NCBI GenBank assembly: GCA_964573185.1
Contig: CAZNIQ010000003.1
Coordinates: 1-32,000 of the forward strand
Reading direction: 5' to 3'
DNA from: Candidatus Woesearchaeota archaeon
GTDB taxonomy: Archaea > Nanobdellota > Nanobdellia > Nanobdellales > CAZNIQ01
Length of the DNA stretch: 32,000 bases
In this document: positions 5,296 to 23,199 of the stretch, one piece after another
How positions within the stretch are numbered: position 1 is the first letter of the stretch
Layout: every line of letters starts with the position of its first letter
Notes under the pieces: model-generated
What the model was told of the DNA's origin: nothing
The model's database searches: none
The model's input: only the letters and a program-made list of their open reading frames with translations
Made by a program: the position numbers and the translations under genes

Positions 5296-6527
5296 TTCTT
5301 CTTTCTTCTAATCACATTTATTAAAGCCAATAGTTGTGATATTGCTAAAATCATCCAATAATATGCTAAGTAAATATAACTAATAATTACACTTATTCTA
5401 ACTTTGTTGTGTTTTTTAATTATAAAATGATAAATTAATGCCAATATCAAAGAGATTGTAAACAAAATCCATACTCTATTTGTAAGATTTAAATAAATGT
5501 ATTCAAAGATATTAAAGTCTCTGTAAGAATTTATTATATAAGATAAATCTATGTATTTTACGTTTGATAATGCCTTTGGAAAATCTCTTAATAGAAATAA
5601 AATAATGATTATTAGAAATGCTAGTAAATTATAGTAGAACGTTGTTAAAGCTAGTAAGAATAAATCCTTTTTGAAAATGTTTATATGTTCTAAAGTGTGT
5701 ATAAACCATCCGTAAAACCATCTTATTCTTTGCTTTATTAACTTCCTTAATGTATTAGGAACATCAGTTTTAATTTCAACATCCGGTAGATACTTTACTT
5801 TATATCCTTTTTCAATAATTCTCAATCCATAATCTAAATCTTCATTTATACTGTTCTTATTAAAGAAACCTACTATATCTAAAGCTTCTTTTTTAACTAG
5901 AGCGCCAGTATTTACAATATACCATGAATAGTAATAAGAGAAGAGATCTTTTAGAAAGTTGGATAACGAATACTCTAGTTTTTGTAATTTTTCAATCAAG
6001 TTTTTATCATTCCTTGGAAGGATTCTTGGAACTACTGCTAAAGTTCTTTCATCAAAGGCTAAAAGCAAGAGGGGATAATTTTTATCTAAATACGTATCTG
6101 CATCTATTATTGCAAAGAAATCAAAGTCTAAGTTTTTCAAAGCATAGTTTAAACCATAATTTAATGCGTCAGCTTTTCCACCATTCAGTTTTTTAAGGAC
6201 TATTAAATTATTATATTTCTTTGTTAACTCAAAAGCTTTTTCGAAAGTTTTATCCTTTGATCCATCATCCACAACTAAAATCCAAAACTTATCTCTAGGA
6301 TAATTTATTTTCTCTATGCTTTCTATTGTAGCTTGTATAGAATCCTCTTCATTATAAGCTGGAATAATGAATAATATCTTAGGAAGCCTTCCGTACTTCT
6401 TTTTAATCTCTTCTAAAGATAATCTTATCTTTTCATCTTTTTTTAATAAATATAAGACAAAGAAGTAATTAGATAAAAATATTAGGAAGAATGCTACTAG
6501 GTATAAATATATTTCAAAGACACTCAT
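5283..6527 (-). CDS. processive family-2 glycosyltransferase (IcaA/PgaC/NodC/chitin-synthase-like synthase)
   Basis: It has an N-terminal transmembrane helix and a GT-A core carrying all D,D,D,QxxRW motifs: VVDDGSKD, IDADT, NEDLDYGLR and QRIRWFYGW. C-terminal transmembrane helices follow. The 414-aa length matches IcaA/NodC-type synthases. Confidence 0.85.
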   Translation of the reverse strand: MSVFEIYLYLVAFFLIFLSNYFFVLYLLKKDEKIRLSLEEIKKKYGRLPKILFIIPAYNEEDSIQATIESIEKINYPRDKFWILVVDDGSKDKTFEKAFELTKKYNNLIVLKKLNGGKADALNYGLNYALKNLDFDFFAIIDADTYLDKNYPLLLLAFDERTLAVVPRILPRNDKNLIEKLQKLEYSLSNFLKDLFSYYYSWYIVNTGALVKKEALDIVGFFNKNSINEDLDYGLRIIEKGYKVKYLPDVEIKTDVPNTLRKLIKQRIRWFYGWFIHTLEHINIFKKDLFLLALTTFYYNLLAFLIIIILFLLRDFPKALSNVKYIDLSYIINSYRDFNIFEYIYLNLTNRVWILFTISLILALIYHFIIKKHNKVRISVIISYIYLAYYWMILAISQLLALINVIRRKKKWWR

Positions 6528-6855: not shown

Positions 6856-7302
6856 ATGAAGGTCCCATTGCAACCTCTGGGAAAACAAGACATACATTTA
6901 TTGGAAACAGCTTTGTTAGTAATGGCTTTATTTGATCCAGAAGTAATGAAAGAAATAAAGGATCCTGAAAAAAGAGTTACTTGGTTAGATTCCTTAGCAG
7001 TTGCCGCAGCTGCATTTGCAAGAAGAAAAGCTGGAATGTCTATACCTGAAATTGCAGAAGAATTGGGAAGAACAGAATCAACAATAAGAAATCATTTGGA
7101 AGGAAAAACAAAAGCTGGACAAATAATACAGAAGGTTTACGAGAGATTAGTAAAATCTGGAGGTGAGGTAGAAATAACAATTGGTGAGGAAGCTGTAGCC
7201 TCAAAGAAATTAGAAGAAATTAAGAAAAAATTAGAAGAGATGGAAGAACATCTTAAGAAAGTAGTAGAAATTTTTGATGAGGTAAAGAAAGCTCTTGAAT
7301 AA
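6856..7302 (+). CDS. HTH-domain DNA-binding protein with C-terminal coiled coil (putative transcriptional regulator)
   Basis: GMSIPEIAEELGRTESTIRNHLEGKTKAG is a classic helix-turn-helix. A KKLEEIKKKLEEMEEHLKKV coiled coil lies at the C-terminus. The gene is immediately upstream of rrp4. Confidence 0.6.
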   Translation: MKVPLQPLGKQDIHLLETALLVMALFDPEVMKEIKDPEKRVTWLDSLAVAAAAFARRKAGMSIPEIAEELGRTESTIRNHLEGKTKAGQIIQKVYERLVKSGGEVEITIGEEAVASKKLEEIKKKLEEMEEHLKKVVEIFDEVKKALE

Positions 7303-9721: not shown

Positions 9722-11470
9722 TTATTTTTTCTTTTTTAATTCTTTATATTTTTGGTAAAGCTTGTATCCAATTTCCTTTTCTTTTTCTTTAATCTCAGAA
9801 CATGCTTGTAAAACAATTTCTTTTGCTTCCTCAATAGTTTTTTCTTTTAAATAAACTTTTCCCTTCTCAATTAAATGCAAATTCTTCTCTAACTTTCTAG
9901 TTAACTCCACAGAGAAAATTTCAGGAATATATTGCTCTAAAATTTCTATAACAACTCTCCCCAAAGTAGTTATCTGTATAGCCTTCCTTCCTTTTATATA
10001 CCTTCTTTTATAGAGAATATAAACTATCTGAGGTCTTGTAGCTTTTGTACCTAATTCCAATTCCTCTAATTTTTTAACTAAAGAAGCAGGAGAGTATCTT
10101 GGTGGAGGTTCAGTATACCTTTTCTCTATTTTTGGATATCCTCTCAAAATTTCACCTTCTTTAAATAAAATACTTTCAAACTCTTTAGAATAAATTTTCC
10201 AATAAACTCTTATCCATTCACTTTCTAGAAGCCTGTCTTTGAATTTATATTCATAAATAAAGGGTATATCATTGCTTCTAGCAAGAACTTTTATATAATA
10301 ATAGTAAGAGTGATCCAAAAATGTTGCAATAAATCTTCTAACAACTAAATCGTAAATTAAGAATTCTTTTTTATTAAGATTCTTAGGAATTTCTCCTGTG
10401 GGATGAATCGCTGGATGAACGTCATCTTTAGGTCCATTATTTGGAATTAATTTTTCTTTTCTCAAAGTTATAGCAATATATTCTTTATATAAGTTTATTT
10501 TACTTAAACTTTCAAAAATTTCTCTAAAATTTATTGTAAATGGCAATTTTTGAGATTCAGTTCTAGGATATGAAATATATCCTTGTTCGTAAAGCTTCTG
10601 GGCAATATCTAATGTTCTTTTAGGAGAAATTCTATACAATTTCCATGCATCTTGCTGAAGATCTGATAAATTATAAGGATAGGGAGGATTTAATATTACT
10701 TTCTTTTTAATTACTTTTTCTATTTTTAAATAATTATTACATCTATTTTTTAATTCCAAAGCTTGTTTATAATCTTTAATTATATTTGGATACATAAATT
10801 TAGCCTTTGTTTGGAAAAATAATAAATAATATGGTTCTGGCTTAAAGCTTTCTATCTCTCTTTCTCTTTCGTAAACTAATTTTAGTGTAGGTCCTTGTAC
10901 TCTTCCTATACTTAACACCACTTTTTTAACATAGTGTCTGATAGCTTTTGTTAATGCTCTAGAGAGATTTATTCCATAAATCCAATCAACGATATGCCTT
11001 GTTTCTCCAGCTAAAGCAAAAGATAAATTCATCTCTTTCAAATTATAGAAAGCATAAAGAATGTCTTTTCTAGTAATTGCAGAAAAAATCATCCTATAAG
11101 CATTATTTCTATTAAAGATAAACCTTAATATATTATATCCAATTAATTCTCCTTCTATATCATAATCGGTTGCAATAATTATTTTATTTTCATTTCTAAA
11201 TCTCTTTAGAATATTTATAAATTTCTTTTTAACATAAATTTTATCCTCTATATAAGCAGGAACCCATTTATAATTAAAAGAAGGATAATACATATCTTTT
11301 CTTAAATCAGATAAAGTAAAAAGGTGTCCTAAAGCAGAAGTAATGTAAACTTTTTCATTATTCAATTTAAAATAAATTAGAGGTGGAAATTTTGAAAGAA
11401 CTTTAAACTTATTAGATAAAAAACTAGCAATCTTCCTTGCAACAGAAGGTTTTTCTGCAATTATAAGCAT
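9722..11470 (-). CDS. topA: type IA DNA topoisomerase, Topo III-like core (TOPRIM + domains II-IV), no C-terminal zinc ribbons
   Basis: MLIIAEKPSVARKIA carries the catalytic Glu motif and is AEKPS-type rather than the VESP-type of reverse gyrase/Topo I. ATDYDIEGELIG is the TOPRIM DxD motif and GYISYPRTES holds the active-site Tyr. It is 582 aa and ends in a Lys-rich helix with no Cys clusters. Confidence 0.88.
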   Translation of the reverse strand: MLIIAEKPSVARKIASFLSNKFKVLSKFPPLIYFKLNNEKVYITSALGHLFTLSDLRKDMYYPSFNYKWVPAYIEDKIYVKKKFINILKRFRNENKIIIATDYDIEGELIGYNILRFIFNRNNAYRMIFSAITRKDILYAFYNLKEMNLSFALAGETRHIVDWIYGINLSRALTKAIRHYVKKVVLSIGRVQGPTLKLVYEREREIESFKPEPYYLLFFQTKAKFMYPNIIKDYKQALELKNRCNNYLKIEKVIKKKVILNPPYPYNLSDLQQDAWKLYRISPKRTLDIAQKLYEQGYISYPRTESQKLPFTINFREIFESLSKINLYKEYIAITLRKEKLIPNNGPKDDVHPAIHPTGEIPKNLNKKEFLIYDLVVRRFIATFLDHSYYYYIKVLARSNDIPFIYEYKFKDRLLESEWIRVYWKIYSKEFESILFKEGEILRGYPKIEKRYTEPPPRYSPASLVKKLEELELGTKATRPQIVYILYKRRYIKGRKAIQITTLGRVVIEILEQYIPEIFSVELTRKLEKNLHLIEKGKVYLKEKTIEEAKEIVLQACSEIKEKEKEIGYKLYQKYKELKKKK

Positions 11471-11499
11471 TAAAATTTTCTAGAGAATAAAAATTTATA

Positions 11500-11597
11500 G
11501 TGATGAAGACCCAGGACTCTGAGACCCCGGTAACCCCGAAGGGCCAGAGATCCCGTAAAGGGTTACGATGAAGGCCCGGTCCTTATCCGGGGTATCT
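11500..11597. ncRNA. GC-rich structured RNA candidate of unknown class, with a 5' C-box/12-nt/D-box half-module
   Basis: 57 of 100 nt are G or C for 11501-11600 by hand count, against a roughly 30% background. GUGAUGA (11500-06) is followed by a 12-nt spacer and CUGA (11519-22). Nested complementary segments are ACCCCGG (11524-30)/CCGGGGU (11587-93) and UAACCC (11531-36)/GGGUUA (11560-65), plus a small AAGG-CCCGGU-CCUU hairpin. The strand is not certain; the minus strand would present a cUUCGg tetraloop. Confidence 0.4.
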
Positions 11598-11645
11598 ATG
11601 ATGAGCGGTGAGGAACTGATTACTGATGATGGTGATCCGGACTGA
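11598..11645 (+). ncRNA. C/D box sRNA (2'-O-methylation guide)
   Basis: Canonical archaeal layout: C box AUGAUGA (11598-604), 11-nt guide GCGGUGAGGAA, D' box CUGA (11616-19), 3-nt loop UUA, C' box CUGAUGA (11623-29), 12-nt guide UGGUGAUCCGGA and D box CUGA (11642-45). It lies antisense to the last codons of the phosphoesterase gene. Confidence 0.6.
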
Positions 11646-12174
11646 TCTTGAATTTCACATCTATTTTATTTTTCTTTAATTCTAAAATAGCAACGCTTTT
11701 AGTTACTATTGGATATTCTCCGGAAGCAACACCCGTAGCTGTTCCAGGGTTTACATAGTAGATCCCTTGGTAATATGTAAACAGAGGTAAATGTGTATGT
11801 CCAAAGATTACTATCTTTGCATTTTTTGCTTTAGCATATTCATATATTTGATCTAAATCCCCCCTAGGATAGACTTCATCTGAGTGAAATACAAATATCC
11901 TCCATCCTTCTATATCTAAAACCAATTCTCTTGGCAGATCTAAGTAATCTGTATTTCCTTGTACAGCTTTGACTTCGGCAATCGTTTCTAACTCTTCAAG
12001 GACTTTTGGATCATTTATATCTCCAGTATGGATGATTAAATCTACCTTTTCTTTTTCAAACCATTCTAAGAATTCCTCCGGTATTTTGCTAGCTCTCCTT
12101 GGTATATGAGTATCCCCTATTAATCCTAATTTCATAAATACAATATATGCCGTTACATCCTTCAATTTTTCCAA
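11620..12174 (-). CDS. metallophosphoesterase, YfcE/MJ0936 family
   Basis: MKLGLIGDTHIP, HTGDI, GNTD, FGHTH and NPGT motifs are all present. The family N-terminus suggests the true start is Met14 at 12135. The C-terminal SPDHHHQ tail is encoded antisense to the C/D sRNA. Confidence 0.85.
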   Translation of the reverse strand: MEKLKDVTAYIVFMKLGLIGDTHIPRRASKIPEEFLEWFEKEKVDLIIHTGDINDPKVLEELETIAEVKAVQGNTDYLDLPRELVLDIEGWRIFVFHSDEVYPRGDLDQIYEYAKAKNAKIVIFGHTHLPLFTYYQGIYYVNPGTATGVASGEYPIVTKSVAILELKKNKIDVKFKISPDHHHQ

Positions 12175-13705: not shown

Positions 13706-14299
13706 ATGTATTACAAAAGCAATGAGGAAGAGTTCTTCAATTTTTACAGAAGAGTAGCTGAAAAAATAAGACCTAAAATTTATATAGGGGTTTTAGGTGG
13801 AGGAACCCAACATATTTTCTTTTTGAAATACTCTAGAATCACTATTTTAATAGACTTAAACTTGAAGCAAATAGAATATATAAAAGATTATAGGGATAAA
13901 GATTGTTCCTATATTTCAGAAAAACATAGCAAATACCCTATTTTTCCAGAATATGTATATCAAATTTGCTTGAAGTACGGAGACGTCTTAAAGTTAACTT
14001 CTGAAGAAGAATTAATTAATGCAGATATTTGGAAGATCCCCGTAAGAAAGGCAGATTTGATTTATCTTTCAAACGTACCTGATTACTTGCTAGATAAGTT
14101 TTATAGAAGAAGGGAGTATCAGGAAGGAATTAAGACTTTAGTTAAAAAATTAGAAGAATTGCTGGAAATCTCGAATTACATTTTATTTGTCAATATGTAT
14201 ACACATTTATGGTTTTTGTATTCTAAGCTTCAAAGAATTCTAGAAAGGAAATATAAGGTTGTAAGATATAAGGATGCATATGTGGTTGGAAAAACCTGA
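13706..14299 (+). CDS. hypothetical protein, weakly Rossmann/class-I-methyltransferase-like
   Basis: IGVLGGGTQ (motif I-like), ILIDLN (acidic beta2 end) and ADLIYLSNVPDYL (motif IV-like). The assignment is tentative. Confidence 0.4.
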   Translation: MYYKSNEEEFFNFYRRVAEKIRPKIYIGVLGGGTQHIFFLKYSRITILIDLNLKQIEYIKDYRDKDCSYISEKHSKYPIFPEYVYQICLKYGDVLKLTSEEELINADIWKIPVRKADLIYLSNVPDYLLDKFYRRREYQEGIKTLVKKLEELLEISNYILFVNMYTHLWFLYSKLQRILERKYKVVRYKDAYVVGKT

Positions 14300-15791
14300 C
14301 ATTCATTGGAAAGCTTATGATGTTTTAGCTCACCAAATTGTAGGATTAACAATTGATTTCGGAGAAGCTGATATAGATTTTGTTTGGAGAACTATAAAAA
14401 GATGTTACCTGTATAAAGATTTAACTTATGAAGAATTCTTGAAATTGCTTGAATTTTTAGATTCTTTAAAGTTAATAAAGTTTGATAAAGAAAATAAAAA
14501 GATAACAAAAACTAGAAAGGGATTTTTCTATTATTTAGAAAATGTTTCAATGATTCCAGATGAAAAATCATATGATGTAATAGATATTAACACTAGAACA
14601 AAAATAGGTATTTTACATGAGGAATTTGTTGCTAAGCATGGGGAGCCAGGTACAATATTTATTTTAAGAGGTTTGCCTTGGAAAATAGAAAAAATAGAAA
14701 AAGATAAAATATATGTTTCATTGGAAAAAGATTTTGAAAGTGCTATACCATCTTGGGAAGGAGAATTAATTCCAGTACCTTTCGAGGTTGCACAACTAGC
14801 TACTGAATTAAAAAAAGAAAATTTAGAGAAATTTGAGGAATTAAAGAATCAAAAATATTGGTTTATACCTGATAAAAACAAAATCTTTATAGAATCATAC
14901 AAAGATTTTATAATAATCCATTCTCCTTTTGGTTCAAAAGTTAATGATACGTTATCAAGGCTATTGGCTTATATCCTTTCAAAAGAATATGGTTTAGTCG
15001 TTGGTTTAAAAACAGACCCTTATAGAATTATTCTGAAAGGAAACATATCTAAAGAAAAAGTGAAAGAAACTTTAGAAAGTTTACCAGAGGATATTGAAAA
15101 TATATTAAAAGAAGCTTTATTTTATATGGATTATTTTTTATGGAGGTTTAAGCATGTAGCTAGAAGATTTGGTATAATATCTAAAAAAGCAGAATATTCT
15201 AAAGGATTCTTAAGAAGACTAGCTGAAAGTTTAAAAGATACTTTTGTTGTAGAGGAAACTTTCAAAGAAATCTTTACAGAAAAGCTGGATATTGAGAGAA
15301 CTAAAGAAATTATAAAGAAAATAAAAGAAGGAGAAATAAAGATTGAAATTATTAATAAAGATAAGCCAAGTCCTTTAGCGATACTTGGATTGGAAACATA
15401 CATATCTGATATAATGTTAGCTGATAGATATAAGGAGATTATAAGGTTAGTTAAAGAGAGATTAGAGAACACCGAATTAATATTTGTTTGTATGAATTGT
15501 AAAAGAATATACAAAATGAAAGTAAAAGATTGGAAGCCATTTAAATGCGTATGTGGTTCAGAATATTTTGGAGTTGTGAAAAGAGAGGAAGATATCAAAA
15601 AAGAAGAAGTTCTTTATGCTACAGCGGATTTATTGAAGCAATGTGGTAAGAAATTCCTTTTAATATATGCAGGCAAAGGAATTAGTTATACTGTAGCAGC
15701 TCATTTATGCTCAAAGAAATACGAAAATGAAGAGCAATTAATTTTAGATATTATTGAGTTTGAGAAAAAGTTTTTGAAAAGAAGATTTTAA
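14274..15791 (+). CDS. Lhr-type large helicase-related protein, C-terminal half only (winged-helix + DEAD/H-associated domain + Zn ribbon)
   Basis: It begins with YDVLAHQIVGLTIDFGEADIDFVWRTIKRCYLYKDLTYEEFLKLLEFLDS, which matches the WH/DEAD_assoc segment that follows RecA2 in Lhr helicases. It has a C-terminal CMNC...CVCG zinc ribbon. No helicase motifs (Walker A, DEAH) occur in this ORF or upstream. Confidence 0.7.
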   Translation: MHMWLEKPDIHWKAYDVLAHQIVGLTIDFGEADIDFVWRTIKRCYLYKDLTYEEFLKLLEFLDSLKLIKFDKENKKITKTRKGFFYYLENVSMIPDEKSYDVIDINTRTKIGILHEEFVAKHGEPGTIFILRGLPWKIEKIEKDKIYVSLEKDFESAIPSWEGELIPVPFEVAQLATELKKENLEKFEELKNQKYWFIPDKNKIFIESYKDFIIIHSPFGSKVNDTLSRLLAYILSKEYGLVVGLKTDPYRIILKGNISKEKVKETLESLPEDIENILKEALFYMDYFLWRFKHVARRFGIISKKAEYSKGFLRRLAESLKDTFVVEETFKEIFTEKLDIERTKEIIKKIKEGEIKIEIINKDKPSPLAILGLETYISDIMLADRYKEIIRLVKERLENTELIFVCMNCKRIYKMKVKDWKPFKCVCGSEYFGVVKREEDIKKEEVLYATADLLKQCGKKFLLIYAGKGISYTVAAHLCSKKYENEEQLILDIIEFEKKFLKRRF

Positions 15792-16825
15792 GATTTTCCA
15801 GCCTCTTTCTTTAACTGCTCAAATCTTTCATCAATCATCTTCTTTAACTTATCACCAATGTATTTACCGGGTGAAAATGCATCCACTCTTGCAGCTATAG
15901 CTATTTTAGCTGCCAAAGTTCTTGCCATTCTACCTCTAAGTTTCTTTGGCAACCTTTGAACGTAAGGGTGATTAAATAATACTCCGTGTTTTGGTGGTGG
16001 AGAACCTTTTCTTAAGTGTCTGAACAAAGCTTTTTCTGCACCTAAGACCTGTATTGTAGAAGCTGGTAACATGGCTAAATCTCTTAATGATCCTGCTAAA
16101 GATATTAATCTTGCACCTACTAAAGGACCAGCAACTGCTGTAACATTTGGAGCAACTTTTTCCATCATTTCCTTTATATACTCTATCAACTTCTTCCTTA
16201 ATTCATATAGTTCCTTTATTCTTTTAGCATATTCTTTTAACATTTCTATTTCTTTTTCAGATAATTCTCCACCCATCGTTTCTTTTATTCCTAACTCTTT
16301 CATTATTTCCTCTCTAGTTTTACTCATCGCCAATTCTACCAATTTTTCGTGATCTTCTATTAACATTTCAACTTCTGGAGCATACAAGCCATACCACTCT
16401 CTAAACCTTTCAATCATCAAGTTAATAATCCTGTTTAAATCGTCTAGAGCATTTATAGCTTGTATTATCAATAAATCAGATGTTACTGACTTTGATATTT
16501 CTTTTCTAGTTACGGATACCATCAATTCTTGAACTTTGTTCCATTCTTCTCTCTTTACAGTTTTTCTTATAACTTCCATAGCTTTGTTTATCTTCTTAGG
16601 ATCATCATCAAACTTCAAATCCAAACCTTCTCTTTTTGGACCTAAATAAATCAATTCATCATATTTCTTTTTCAATTCTTCATAAATTTTCTTCTCTTTT
16701 TCAATTGCTTTTCCCTCTTTTATCTTTAATACTTCATCAACTGTTAAATCTAAAGGTATTCTTTCTTTTAGATTAAAATTTTCATCAAAAACATAGATTC
16801 CTGTTACATGTGTCAGTACGTACAT
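15788..16825 (-). CDS. nop5: C/D box sRNP core protein Nop5 (Nop56/58)
   Basis: NOP domain: AGPLVGARLISLAGSLRDLAMLPASTIQVLGAEKALFRHLRKGSPPPKHGVLFNHPYV. It also has a central coiled coil and an N-terminal fibrillarin-binding domain. Confidence 0.9.
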   Translation of the reverse strand: MYVLTHVTGIYVFDENFNLKERIPLDLTVDEVLKIKEGKAIEKEKKIYEELKKKYDELIYLGPKREGLDLKFDDDPKKINKAMEVIRKTVKREEWNKVQELMVSVTRKEISKSVTSDLLIIQAINALDDLNRIINLMIERFREWYGLYAPEVEMLIEDHEKLVELAMSKTREEIMKELGIKETMGGELSEKEIEMLKEYAKRIKELYELRKKLIEYIKEMMEKVAPNVTAVAGPLVGARLISLAGSLRDLAMLPASTIQVLGAEKALFRHLRKGSPPPKHGVLFNHPYVQRLPKKLRGRMARTLAAKIAIAARVDAFSPGKYIGDKLKKMIDERFEQLKKEAGKS

Positions 16826-16855
16826 TTAAAAAATTAAGAATGGTAATTTAAAAAT

Positions 16856-17020
16856 CTATTTCTTCTCAAGTAACTTCTCTATTTTCTCATCAATCTTCAA
16901 AATTTTCTCTTCTAATGAAATAATTTTTTCCTCTAAGATCAGAACTTTCTTTAAAGCAACTGCTATGGCTAGAACAGCCCCTAACGTCAAGGCTATTAAG
17001 ATTAAGATTGCGTACTCCAT
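16856..17020 (-). CDS. small membrane-anchored leucine-zipper protein (54 aa), not in supplied ORF track
   Basis: Hand translation gives MEYAILILIALTLGAVLAIAVALKKVLILEEKIISLEEKILKIDEKIEKLLEKK*. It has one transmembrane helix plus heptad repeats. It starts 14 nt after the S10 stop on the same strand. Confidence 0.45.
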   Translation of the reverse strand: MEYAILILIALTLGAVLAIAVALKKVLILEEKIISLEEKILKIDEKIEKLLEKK

Positions 17021-17034
17021 AAAAAAGAATTATT

Positions 17035-21212: not shown

Positions 21213-22316
21213 ATGGAAAAATTAGAAAATACTCTTCAAAGGATGGGTTACCAAGTGATAGTTACACAGCGAGCAGGAAAGCATATAAAAGTACCCGGAC
21301 TACCAGAATTAAAAGAACAAGAGGTTATAAAGCTTTATTATAGATTAGAAAATATTGAGGACATAGAAGACGTTGAAGAAAAGCTACCTATTGTATCCAA
21401 AAGAATTCTAGAAATGATAAATAGGTTAAAACCTTTAATTGACAGTGGCAAAATTAGAGTTAAATATGATGAAAAGGGGAGGTTGCTATCAAAAATTAAT
21501 CTCCTCTTCGCTATATATGTGCCGGGATACCACTTTGTAGTTTACGTTCCTTATGATATAAACATTCTTAAAGAAACTCTGAAAAGGACGATTGATGCTC
21601 CTTACAGTAAATTGGTAATTAAGTTAGGAAAAACTTTAAAGCATCAAAGAATACCCTTAAAAGAAGAAGATCTAGAAGCAATTATAGATTTAGCTTTAAA
21701 TGAGATCAAAAGAGAATTGTCTTCTTTAAAAGAAAACTATAACTATTACAAAAGGTATGTAAACAATATAGAAAGATCTCCAGATTACAAAACGGAACTA
21801 ATAAAAATAGCGATAAGAAAAGTGGGAGCTAGTTTAAATAAAGGAAGAGCCTTAGAGTTTGGTAGGCTAGAAGGAGGTAGAGTTTGTTTTACTGAGGATA
21901 ATATTTGTGTAGAGCTTTCTAAAAAGGATTATGAACTTGCAAAGAAAAGAGTAAAACAGAATCTTGAAAAGGAGCTTCAAGATATATCTAATAAAATTAC
22001 TATATTAGAAAAGTATTATAAAAGGGTAACAACCCTCCTTGCTCAAAGAAAATATTTGGATGCTCTAAGAATGTTAAAAGAGTTATATCAAAGATTCTCC
22101 TATTTAGGATACTCCCGCTATATAGAATCTATAAAAATAGAGGGTAACAATGCGTACGTAACAAATGAAAAATATGAAGATGTACCAGATTCCTTAATTG
22201 ACACCATTTCTATTACAAAGAAAATTTCAGATAGAATTTATATAAGTTACATTCCTTCTAAAGAAGAATGGGCCAAGAAAATAGAAAAATTGTGTAAAGA
22301 GCAATTAAATCTTTAG
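21213..22316 (+). CDS. hypothetical protein (orphan), N-terminal alpha/beta region plus long coiled-coil segments
   Basis: 367 aa with no recognisable catalytic motif. Heptad-rich regions include EIKRELSSLKENYNYYKRY and KQNLEKELQDISNKITILEKYYKRVTTLL. The reading frame is clean and oligo-T tracts follow it. Confidence 0.6.
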   Translation: MEKLENTLQRMGYQVIVTQRAGKHIKVPGLPELKEQEVIKLYYRLENIEDIEDVEEKLPIVSKRILEMINRLKPLIDSGKIRVKYDEKGRLLSKINLLFAIYVPGYHFVVYVPYDINILKETLKRTIDAPYSKLVIKLGKTLKHQRIPLKEEDLEAIIDLALNEIKRELSSLKENYNYYKRYVNNIERSPDYKTELIKIAIRKVGASLNKGRALEFGRLEGGRVCFTEDNICVELSKKDYELAKKRVKQNLEKELQDISNKITILEKYYKRVTTLLAQRKYLDALRMLKELYQRFSYLGYSRYIESIKIEGNNAYVTNEKYEDVPDSLIDTISITKKISDRIYISYIPSKEEWAKKIEKLCKEQLNL

Positions 22317-22386: not shown

Positions 22387-23199
22387 ATGTTAGAAGAATT
22401 TGCTACTTATTTAGAACTTCAAGGTAGATCTAAGAATACAATAAGAACTTATTGTTGGATAGTTGAAAATTTCTTAAAATATATAAATAAAGATCCTTAT
22501 GCGATTTCTAAAGAAGATATCTTTAGATATCTAGCATACCTTAAGAAAAAATGGAATTATGATTCGAATAGCATAAGATTGGTAGTTATTGCCTTAAAAC
22601 AATTTTTTAAATTTATAGGGAGAGAGGACCTATTAATTTATTTGAAATCTCCAAAGATAGATAAAAGGTTACCGAAATTCATTACATATGAAGAGTTCTT
22701 GCGTTTAGTAGGAGCTTGCGATAATCCAAGAGATAAACTTATGATAAAGTTCCTTTTTTATACTGGTGTAAGAGTTTCCGAACTAGTAAATCTTAAAATA
22801 GATGATATTCTCTGGGAAGAAGGATTTGTAAAGGTAAAAGGAAAAGGAGGGAAAGAAAGAATAATACCCCTTCCAGAATCTCTATTAAAAGAATTAAAGG
22901 AATACGTTGAAACAAGAAAAATTAAGTCCGAATATCTTTTTCCTTCTAAAAGAGGTAGTAAACTCAGTACAAGGCAGGTACAAAGAATTATTAACAAAGC
23001 TAGGATAAAAGCTGGGATTCGAAAAAAGGTGACACCTCATATTCTAAGACACTCTTTAGCAACTTTTTTATTATCAAAAGGCGTAGATATAAGAATTATT
23101 CAGGAAATACTTGGACATTCTTCTTTAAGTGTAACGCAAATATATACACACGTAGTACCAAAGCAGCTTAAGGAGATATATAAAAAGGTTTTCGAATGA
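22387..23199 (+). CDS. xerA: tyrosine recombinase XerA (XerC/D family)
   Basis: N-terminal SAM-like core-binding domain. The catalytic set is complete: TGVRVSEL (Arg), KGKGGKERIIPL (Lys), HILRHSLAT (H-x-x-R) and LGHSSLSVTQIYTHV (His and Tyr nucleophile). 270 aa. Confidence 0.88.
   Translation: MLEEFATYLELQGRSKNTIRTYCWIVENFLKYINKDPYAISKEDIFRYLAYLKKKWNYDSNSIRLVVIALKQFFKFIGREDLLIYLKSPKIDKRLPKFITYEEFLRLVGACDNPRDKLMIKFLFYTGVRVSELVNLKIDDILWEEGFVKVKGKGGKERIIPLPESLLKELKEYVETRKIKSEYLFPSKRGSKLSTRQVQRIINKARIKAGIRKKVTPHILRHSLATFLLSKGVDIRIIQEILGHSSLSVTQIYTHVVPKQLKEIYKKVFE

Follow-up and report, generated by a model that had tools for sequence, protein, structure and literature searches.

A candidate cassette of RNA-modification guides in a GC-rich island upstream of a nanoarchaeal topA gene

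Guide RNAs of Nanoarchaeota and an island next to topA

Nanoarchaeota have tiny genomes and a large RNA-modification apparatus, and outside Nanoarchaeum equitans their guide RNAs are almost unannotated. In N. equitans, 26 C/D small RNAs (sRNAs) have been published, together with a single 159-nt H/ACA sRNA, which is composed of two hairpins and encoded between NEQ389 and NEQ392 (PMC3491384). Here we describe a short GC-rich island found in a 32,000-nt stretch of archaeal DNA (contig CAZNIQ010000003.1, positions 1 to 32,000; referred to below as the window), between a topoisomerase I gene, topA, and a gene encoding a phosphoesterase. We put the probability that the + strand of this island, at 11500-11645, represents a compact, probably co-transcribed cassette of RNA-modification guides at about 0.5. 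The layout of the locus is unusual and its components are known, i.e. a C/D sRNA, an extra half guide and an H/ACA-like hairpin between them. Three methylation guides and a probable pseudouridylation guide would thereby be placed within 146 nt behind one predicted promoter, in a window where Rfam at gathering score finds no guide RNA.

The part of the locus at 11598-11645 shows the order of elements that is typical of the N. equitans C/D sRNAs: C box, 11-12 nt, D′ box, 3-nt linker, C′ box, 12 nt and D box. Some of the N. equitans C/D sRNA genes also resemble the locus in that transcription starts at the C box behind a TTTAAA-type box, in overlapping a protein gene, in having RNA genes as neighbours and in their variable position. 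In contrast, N. equitans sRNAs are not described as carrying a further half module at the 5′ end or a hairpin of 70 nt that separates a D′ box from a C box. None of the 26 published C/D sRNAs of this species, nor its H/ACA sRNA, is identical to anything in the window.

Two further systems share features with the locus. Nanoarchaeal tRNA-C/D sRNA dicistrons, such as tRNA-Val-sRNA8 of N. equitans and the sRNA-tRNA-Leu pair of the related locus L076, contain a C/D sRNA located a few nucleotides from a structured RNA of ~70-85 nt within one transcription unit, but the structured partner in the island is not a tRNA and has no T-loop motif. Eukaryotic small Cajal body-specific RNAs (scaRNAs) of the U85 type are alike in the order of their parts (C, guide, D′, H/ACA-type domain, C′, guide, D), and in the island, too, the order along the sequence is that of a hairpin nested between the first D-type box (D1) and the second C-type box (C2). 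However, scaRNAs of the U85 type have been proven to be single RNAs and bear an H and an ACA box with their two H/ACA hairpins, whereas the locus, at most a candidate for a single RNA, has one ACA-less hairpin plus a third C/D module.

The island occupies the entire gap between topA (9722-11470; Toprim and Topoisom_bac domains) and the phosphoesterase gene (11620-12135/12174; Metallophos_2 domain), both of which are located on the - strand. The topoisomerase I of the window is 100% identical to proteins encoded on ENA, JGI and Logan metagenomic contigs, and 88% identical to one protein of a metagenome-assembled genome (MAG); the proteins that share 52-60% identity with it carry the names Nanopusillus, Nanopusillaceae, Nanobdella or Nanoarchaeota. 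Judged from these identity levels, the host is an uncultured nanoarchaeon, Nanopusillaceae-like and distinct from N. equitans.

A preliminary description of this DNA, made by inspection of the sequence, had drawn attention to the base composition of the island, and its hand count was exact: 81 of the 150 nucleotides at 11500-11649 are G or C (0.54, compared with 0.306 in the window). The G+C content reaches 0.60 in the core (11523-11597), while sliding-window values are 0.57 and 0.50 over the island and about 0.2-0.3 in its flanks. This is the longest stretch of at least 50% GC in the window and the sole such stretch between open reading frames (ORFs). Three modules composed of a C box, a spacer and CUGA, which had been assigned to the + strand, were all recovered in place and on that strand, at 11500-11522 (module 1), 11598-11619 (module 2) and 11623-11645 (module 3).

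A functional element on the - strand, i.e. a structured 5′ leader of topA or a terminator or 3′ untranslated region of the phosphoesterase gene, was also considered. The island spans the full gap between two co-oriented - strand genes, and the two stems of the hairpin described below are near-palindromic, so that similar stems could form in the - strand transcript. However, all seven box motifs and the kink turn (K-turn) consensus are readable on the + strand only, folding of the - strand gives no improvement over shuffled sequences (z = +0.5), and the closest relative carries the same two genes without the island sequence; such an element is therefore highly improbable.

C/D modules and transcription signals

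Modules 2 and 3 together compose an element (11598-11645, + strand) that is very probably a canonical archaeal C/D sRNA, the class to which they had been assigned at first reading. Its C box, AUGAUGA (11598-604), is followed by an 11-nt D′ guide, GCGGUGAGGAA (11605-15), a D′ box, CUGA (11616-19), the linker UUA (11620-22), a C′ box, (C)UGAUGA (11623-29), a 12-nt D guide, UGGUGAUCCGGA (11630-41), and a D box, CUGA (11642-45). A RUGAUGA-type C box is thus present near the 5′ end and a CUGA D box near the 3′ end, the D′-C′ linker lies within the 3-9 nt taken as the range for this class, and the guides of 11 and 12 nt are spaced as in N. equitans sRNAs. No other full C/D pattern occurs in the window, and TGATGA-N11-CTGA has one match across its two strands (0.05 expected). 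In E-value mode, about a dozen archaeal C/D families of Rfam (sR2, sR1, sR3, sR5, sR12 and others) align end to end with the whole element, at 11594-11647. The best of them is sR2 (24.7 bits, E = 1.4e-3), which does not reach its gathering score of 42; such scores are expected, since the sR families represent lineage-specific guides.

On the C/D and C′/D′ motifs of this sRNA, L7Ae would be bound, and Nop5 with fibrillarin would then methylate the rRNA base paired to the fifth base of each guide. A Nop5 gene (Pfam Nop, 214 bits) is located about 4 kb from the island, at 15788-16825 on the - strand, with a 210-nt gap upstream of it (16826-17034). Fibrillarin and L7Ae genes were not seen in the window, and no fibrillarin gene adjoins the Nop5 gene.

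Putative targets were searched for in the rRNAs of Escherichia coli and in the 16S rRNA and the 3′ half of the 23S rRNA of N. equitans (sequences from the supplement of PMC4644070). Between the D guide, UGGUGAUCCGGA, and the universal 3′ end of 16S rRNA, (C)UGGAUCACC, an uninterrupted run of 10 pairs (one of them G.U) can be drawn, which places G1530 at the fifth position, and 16S G1530 is its predicted target for 2′-O-methylation. In N. equitans, Gm1530 has been measured within the fragment (Um)G(Gm)AU at 1528-1532 (PMC5389701). In N. equitans sRNA20, a guide that points to the same nucleotide, AGGUGAUCCAGC, occupies the D′ position and agrees with the D guide at 9 of 12 bases. The D guide lends support to the idea of conserved methylation around helix 45 of 16S rRNA in Nanoarchaeota. 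The D′ guide, GCGGUGAGGAA, can form 8 bp at two sites of N. equitans 16S rRNA, CCUCACCG (E. coli 981) and CUCACCGC (E. coli 1396), and it probably targets a 16S site containing CUCACCG at one of these positions. A shuffle control does not favour these assignments: the best guide-target runs do not surpass those obtained with shuffled guides, which often reach such lengths, so the assignments rest on biological context and not on statistics.

The C/D sRNA overlaps the phosphoesterase gene in antisense. The overlap had been noted before, although its extent is the stop codon plus the last 7 codons and not ~9 codons. Module 3 with the UUA linker is the antisense of this tail, SPDHHHQ and stop (11620-11644, - strand), in which the stop codon is the complement of the linker, the His run derives from the C′ box and the remainder corresponds to the D guide. 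In the island-less relative, the phosphoesterase ends three residues past the point where the protein alignment stops, which indicates that the sRNA gene supplied the C-terminus of the phosphoesterase in the window.

Module 1 (11500-11522, + strand) consists of a C box, GUGAUGA (11500-06), a 12-nt guide, AGACCCAGGACU (11507-18), with a GC content of 58% in a 31% GC genome, and a D′-type box, CUGA (11519-22). The earlier view of this segment as an orphan half module holds beyond chance: it is the sole match to RTGATGA-N12-CTGA in 64 kb (both strands of the window), compared with 0.03 expected per window from shuffles. On these features it is read as a genuine extra C-guide-D′ module located at the probable transcription start. 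The guide has a 10-nt exact complement, UCCUGGGUCU, in helix 91 of the 23S rRNA of Methanococcus maripaludis (E. coli 2519-2528), a region around which the sRNA labels of several archaea cluster in a published 23S alignment. This complement is absent from the 23S rRNA of N. equitans, the sequence of which differs there.

Four N. equitans sRNA genes (sRNA12, 13, 15 and 16) begin at the C box and carry TTTAAA or TTTATAA at about -28 to -21 of the 40-nt upstream sequences given for them (PMC3491384). A box A/TATA-like element, TTAAAATT, was identified at 11470-11477 (+ strand), 23-30 nt upstream of G11500, where it overlaps the start codon of topA on the opposite strand; its spacing to G11500 matches that of the N. 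equitans genes, and by this analogy it may act as a promoter element. A T-rich run, TATTTTATTTTTCTTT (11663-11678, + strand), which from its sequence could be an archaeal terminator, starts 18 nt past the D box. A scan for bacterial-type promoters and terminators, which is unsuited to archaea, gave no match. Since no A/T-rich promoter-like stretch is present inside the GC-rich block, the three parts of the locus would most likely be made as one precursor, and a single transcription unit is the economical reading in view of this, the spacing of TTAAAATT and the downstream T-run. Transcription would begin at about G11500, directed by the TATA-like box (-30 to -23), and end at the T-run after 11663.

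The lower stem of the intervening hairpin would place the CUGA box of 11519 next to the C box of 11598, and the pairs G11523-C11596 and A11524-U11595 would complete a canonical K-turn C-stem. Module 1 would thus serve as an additional C-guide-D′ methylation module, the CUGA of which forms a K-turn with the C box of module 2. As this K-turn uses the lower stem as its C-stem, the hairpin is best viewed as an insertion in the D′-C′ linker of modules 1 and 2. Deletion of 11524-11593 leaves C-12-D′-GAUCU-C′-11-D, which is the canonical sRNA layout, and from this layout the locus can be described as two canonical sRNAs that share the middle module, the first being interrupted by a hairpin in its D′-C′ linker.

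In the archaeal C/D small ribonucleoprotein (sRNP), a Nop5 dimer bridges two K-turns. The geometry of the boxes in the locus raises the alternative that it matures as one three-guide C/D RNA of ~146 nt, C1-g1-D1-hairpin-C2-g2-D2-UUA-C3-g3-D3, with K-turns formed by C1/D3, by D1/C2 via the hairpin stem and by D2/C3 as a K-loop. The hairpin would then be no more than an insertion of structural, L7Ae-binding type, or else would form a pseudouridylation domain within the RNA, as in U85. The box order fits, since every guide has a C-type box on its 5′ side and a D-type box on its 3′ side; the joining of D1 and C2 by the lower stem with its completed C-stem, the canonical sRNA that is left when 11524-11593 is removed, and the lack of promoter-like A/T stretches within the island are likewise in keeping with one RNA. 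However, modules 2 and 3, joined by the usual 3-nt linker, already make up a complete canonical sRNA that does not require module 1, C1 is without a pairing partner flank for a terminal stem, the known sRNP bridges two K-turns and not three, and literature searches turned up no archaeal composite. We consider a single three-guide RNA unlikely. Its more specific form, in which an ACA-less H/ACA-type hairpin is nested in a C/D RNA with three guides and four L7Ae-binding K-turns, is distinctly unlikely; if true, it would give the Archaea a counterpart of the eukaryotic C/D-H/ACA scaRNAs, or an independently invented equivalent, and would need a C/D RNP geometry with three K-turns instead of two. 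A cassette maturing as one RNA would give the first composite C/D-H/ACA guide in Archaea as well as the first three-guide C/D RNA, and would bear on the sRNP guide-spacing measurement and on the origin of eukaryotic composite scaRNAs. Two of the readings offered in the preliminary description, namely a structured RNA co-transcribed with a C/D sRNA and a three-guide composite with a large D′-C′ insertion, are both possible.

The hairpin between the modules

The core of the island, at 11524-11593 on the + strand, is most likely an ACA-less H/ACA-like hairpin, which we do not file as a member of the H/ACA sRNAs. As the second part of the cassette, it would act as a single-hairpin guide that recruits L7Ae and Cbf5-Nop10-Gar1 and directs the pseudouridylation of a U. 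Genes for Cbf5, Nop10 and Gar1 were not found in the 32-kb window. In the minimum free energy (MFE) structure predicted at 70 °C, a 7-bp lower stem (P1) encloses a pocket of 10 + 9 nt, above which a 5-bp upper stem (P2) is formed. P1 consists of ACCCCGG (11524-11530) and CCGGGGU (11587-11593), with a pairing probability of 0.94 at 37 °C and 0.88 at 75 °C. The 5′ strand of the pocket, UAACCCCGAA (11531-11540; 10 nt, 50% GC), is unpaired in the fold predicted at 60 °C and above, and the 3′ strand is GGUCCUUAU (11578-11586; 9 nt). P2 is composed of GGGCC (11541-11545) and GGCCC (11573-11577), and its probability rises from 0.66 at 37 °C to 0.94 at 60 °C.

The upper stem carries a predicted K-turn and an apical hairpin (11546-11572), recognised by the consensus C-stem, 3-nt bulge, tandem G.A/A.G and NC-stem. 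A11546 faces A11572, G11547-A11548 are the sheared-pair partners of G11570-A11571, and G11567 A U11569 make up the 3-nt bulge. In the 18-nt apical hairpin (11549-66), G11549-C11566 is the closing pair, CCC/GGG the stem and GUAAA the loop. A CGAUGA element had previously been singled out as K-turn-like, and it does provide one strand of the K-turn; its partner, however, is GA at 11547-48 and not the AAGG/CCUU hairpin that it was thought to precede. The same motif with the same spacing is present in both N. equitans H/ACA hairpins, and in the core it represents a predicted L7Ae site.

The two N. equitans hairpins are alike in having a lower stem, a pocket, an upper stem of 5-7 bp and GA...GAUGA around an apical hairpin of 16-18 nt. 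Hairpin 1, ACCUAU-GA-[18 nt]-GAUGA-AUAGGU, has the K-turn spacing of the core. The 3′ box of the N. equitans hairpins lies 15-16 nt after the upper stem, and in hairpin 1 ACA is found where the core has AUC (11594-11596, 16 nt after its upper stem). The apical segments are similar in sequence (UCCCGU.A.GGG.UA.GAUGAA), and the best local alignment of the core with the N. equitans H/ACA sRNA, UCCCGUAAAGGGUUACGAUGAA with UCCCGU-CAGGGAUAGGAUGAA, joins structurally equivalent segments; it contains 18 identities in 22 columns, and 50 of 3000 shuffled sequences score as well (p about 0.02). A descriptor of the upper module, which measures 37 nt in each of the three hairpins, fits the two of N. equitans as well as the core. 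Unlike the N. equitans sRNA, the core is one hairpin, has unrelated pocket sequences and is directly flanked by C/D boxes.

The full descriptor (lower stem, pocket, upper stem and the GA...GAUGA K-turn) has a single match in the 64 kb, at 11524-11593, compared with a mean of 0.05 matches in shuffled windows, and is matched by 4 of 5000 composition-matched shuffles of the island; these figures flatter the descriptor, as the sequences were already known when it was composed. The earlier statement that the core could not be matched to tRNA, H/ACA, SRP or RNase P stands in part: it is not a tRNA, and no Rfam family matches at gathering score in the core or anywhere else in the window, while features of H/ACA guides do match through the descriptor.

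The core had originally been drawn as nested helices, and the complementary segments exist (ACCCCGG 11524-30 with CCGGGGT 11587-93, TAACCC 11531-36 with GGGTTA 11559-64, and AAGG with CCTT). Of these, the two inner helices are minor: at 37 °C they have probabilities of 0.30 and 0.12, and from 60 °C upward these fall to about 0. The nested three-way junction is the MFE structure at 37 °C (-28.7 kcal/mol) only, whereas the H/ACA-like fold is predicted from 60-70 °C and dominates the ensemble at every temperature tested; we therefore prefer it to the nested fold. These results bear on the alternative of a core RNA that belongs to an unknown structured class unrelated to H/ACA guides, is folded as a nested three-way junction and is merely co-transcribed with the C/D modules. 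It can point to the 37 °C minimum, to the missing ACA and to the fact that neither an Rfam family nor a model derived from N. equitans recognises the core. However, the inner helices, improbable at 37 °C, are gone at 60 °C and above, and the relatives are thermophiles; by our own estimate, chance alone would produce a 6-bp complement in 75 nt in about half of all cases; and the nested fold would bury a perfect GA/GAUGA K-turn consensus placed as in the N. equitans hairpins. We regard an RNA of this kind as very doubtful.

Several results, together with the comparative ones given in the next section, weigh against the H/ACA-like reading and the cassette as a whole. The folding energies of the island and the core are unexceptional when compared with shuffled sequences (z = -0.7 and -1.2, respectively). 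In Pyrococcus guides the lower stem has 8-9 bp and the GA stem 10 layers (PMC4652768), while the lower stem of the core has 7 bp and its GA stem, with 5 bp, one A.A and two G.A pairs, has 8 layers instead of the 10 required by the rule of that study. The GA stems of the N. equitans hairpins have 8 and 9 layers. The ACA box is replaced by AUC at +17 to +19, and no ANA triplet is present from +14 to +22. The pocket strands have alternative intramolecular partners; thus 11531-36 of the 5′ strand pairs with 11559-64 with a probability of 0.30 at 37 °C. Altogether, at least three of the four features of a productive fold listed in PMC4652768 are missing from the hairpin, which by that list would count as non-productive. 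No Rfam H/ACA family matches the core at threshold, and a match to HgcE (12.3 bits, E = 3.6) disappeared in a narrower Rfam search. A covariance model was built from N. equitans hairpin 1 alone, as the MAFFT alignment of the two hairpins was not structure-consistent; the core is absent from its matches in the window and scores 0.4 bits when searched directly.

The pocket offers no clear target either. Its best sites in N. equitans rRNA are GGGCC-UG-UUCGG in 23S (5 + 5 bp, 3′ of helix 93) and U954 in 16S (E. coli 981), and the top pocket score of 10.5, reached by 18 of 400 shuffled pockets, is only marginally unusual. The adjacent D′ guide, too, has U954 among its two best sites; the chance expectation for such a coincidence is about 2 in 197, but both matches are imperfect.

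Atypical H/ACA-like pseudouridine guides were reportedly described in Pyrobaculum by Bernick et al. in 2012. The Pyrobaculum guides are also single K-turn hairpins in which ANA is degenerate or missing (PMC4652768); they have lost the lower stem and have a GA stem of about 10 layers, whereas the core retains a 7-bp lower stem and has 8 layers. In the Haloferax/Methanocaldococcus system, ACA is dispensable in vitro and in vivo for typical single-stem-loop guides, and archaeal guides of this type work without ACA if the target UN is at most 17 nt from the box position (PMC7075261). Because ACA-less guides exist in Pyrobaculum (PMC4652768) and because of the results in PMC7075261, an H/ACA-like function of the core stays plausible. 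If active, the hairpin would mark a further lineage in which ACA is dispensable in nature, in line with the Haloferax and Pyrobaculum data.

Other candidate structures were rejected. ARAGORN found no tRNA or split tRNA in the window, the Rfam tRNA model gave no match there even at E ≤10, though it does detect an intron-containing tRNA in the related locus L077, and GTTCRAATC is absent from both strands. A cloverleaf reading and a T-arm-like CCCGG/UCCUUAU/CCGGG hairpin were discarded on inspection, as the loop has the wrong motif, an acceptor partner is missing and the ensemble probability is 0.0. Around the core hairpin, inspection by eye revealed just one 2-nt bulge in place of the bulge-helix-bulge motif of the splicing endonuclease.

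The segment UAACCCCGAAGGG (11531-11543, + strand), which comprises the 5′ strand of the pocket and the start of P2, resembles in the same sense a hairpin of N. equitans 23S rRNA, CUAACCCCGAAAGGGGG, near E. coli 2200. This likeness may be due to chance or may be a trace of the origin of the element.

Related loci, assemblies and other genes

Eight loci with topA products 52-88% identical were compared with the window, and about 170 kb of related nanoarchaeal loci were scanned. No related hairpin was found in these loci by BLAST or descriptor scans. In JGI metagenome contigs, the pattern of pocket and K-turn had 59 matches, of which 58 were random GC-rich bacterial DNA and one was the source contig, and scans of IMG/VR revealed no island homologue. 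With a single sequence and no homologue found, covariation is lacking. In the nearest relative, L009 (phosphoesterase 93% and topA 88% identical to the window), an unrelated stretch of 835 nt, including a 233-aa ORF, replaces 11472-11645, and homology ends at the topA ATG on one side and at the D box on the other. More distant relatives have other neighbours upstream of topA, among them tRNA-Leu, which in L076 is preceded by a C/D sRNA ending four bases before it. The GC islands of the relatives are either tRNA-Leu genes (one of them, in L076, with a preceding C/D sRNA) or lie inside called genes.

C/D sRNA genes are frequent in the relatives and are fused there to other RNAs (three near topA in L009, and the sRNA-tRNA-Leu of L076); the same pattern is found in N. 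equitans (PMC3491384). The three C/D sRNA-like genes of L009 are located within 1.5 kb of the 3′ end of topA, at 5744-5791 (-), 5827-5875 (+) and 7167-7215 (+). As they share no guide with the modules of the window, the guide-RNA gene content around topA appears to turn over quickly.

The island is identical across independent assemblies (ENA and Logan; L003/L006 and L004). Partial contigs of a further dataset, L005, L007 and L008, are identical to the island over the part that they cover. Of these, L005 ends at 11588, while L007 and L008 start at 11613 (JGI 3300026488 and Logan SRR7968109, possibly the same dataset). These contig breaks inside the island suggest a repeated 26-nt segment, composed of the C box and the D′ guide, or a strain-level rearrangement.

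Another view is that module 1 and the hairpin are functionless debris of duplicated or rearranged mobile sRNA genes, left beside one working C/D sRNA. The closest relative is without the island, the borders of which fall on the ends of genes; mobility and rearrangement of C/D sRNA genes are on record for N. equitans (PMC3491384), the assemblies of one sample break inside the island, and neither the module 1 guide nor the pocket has a significant target in N. equitans rRNA. Debris in a 31% GC genome would be expected to decay toward A/T, yet the boxes of module 1 are perfect and its guide has 58% GC, and the hairpin combines 60% GC with intact stems and a perfect K-turn; in addition, the island is identical in independent assemblies. 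We give this view only a slight chance, and retain a cassette of guides as the preferred reading.

In L076 (Nanopusillaceae MAG GCA_038823625.1), the region 9831-9970 (+), directly upstream of topA, comprises a C/D sRNA (AGATGATGA...CTGA), TTTT and tRNA-Leu(UAG). The motif ATAAATGAAGA in the D′-C′ region of this sRNA lies about 26 nt before the 5′ end of the tRNA and could double as the TATA box of the tRNA gene, in a lineage thought to make leaderless tRNAs. This tRNA-Leu was found by ARAGORN and missed by Rfam at gathering score. Conversely, the intron-containing tRNA at 21579-21676 (-) of L077 (Nanobdella aerobiophila, AP019769) was detected by Rfam (62.5 bits) and missed by ARAGORN. As each program missed one gene, neither alone is reliable for nanoarchaeal tRNAs.

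Elsewhere in the window, the ORF at 14274-15791 (+) encodes only the C-terminal domains of Lhr (WH_Lhr and DEAD_assoc) and no helicase core. The same arrangement is present in L009, and this ORF may be part of a split Lhr gene, as is typical of Nanoarchaeota. A tyrosine recombinase gene (Phage_integrase, Xer-like) is located at 22387-23199 (+), flanked by an unannotated ORF on one side and the RNA polymerase B operon on the other.

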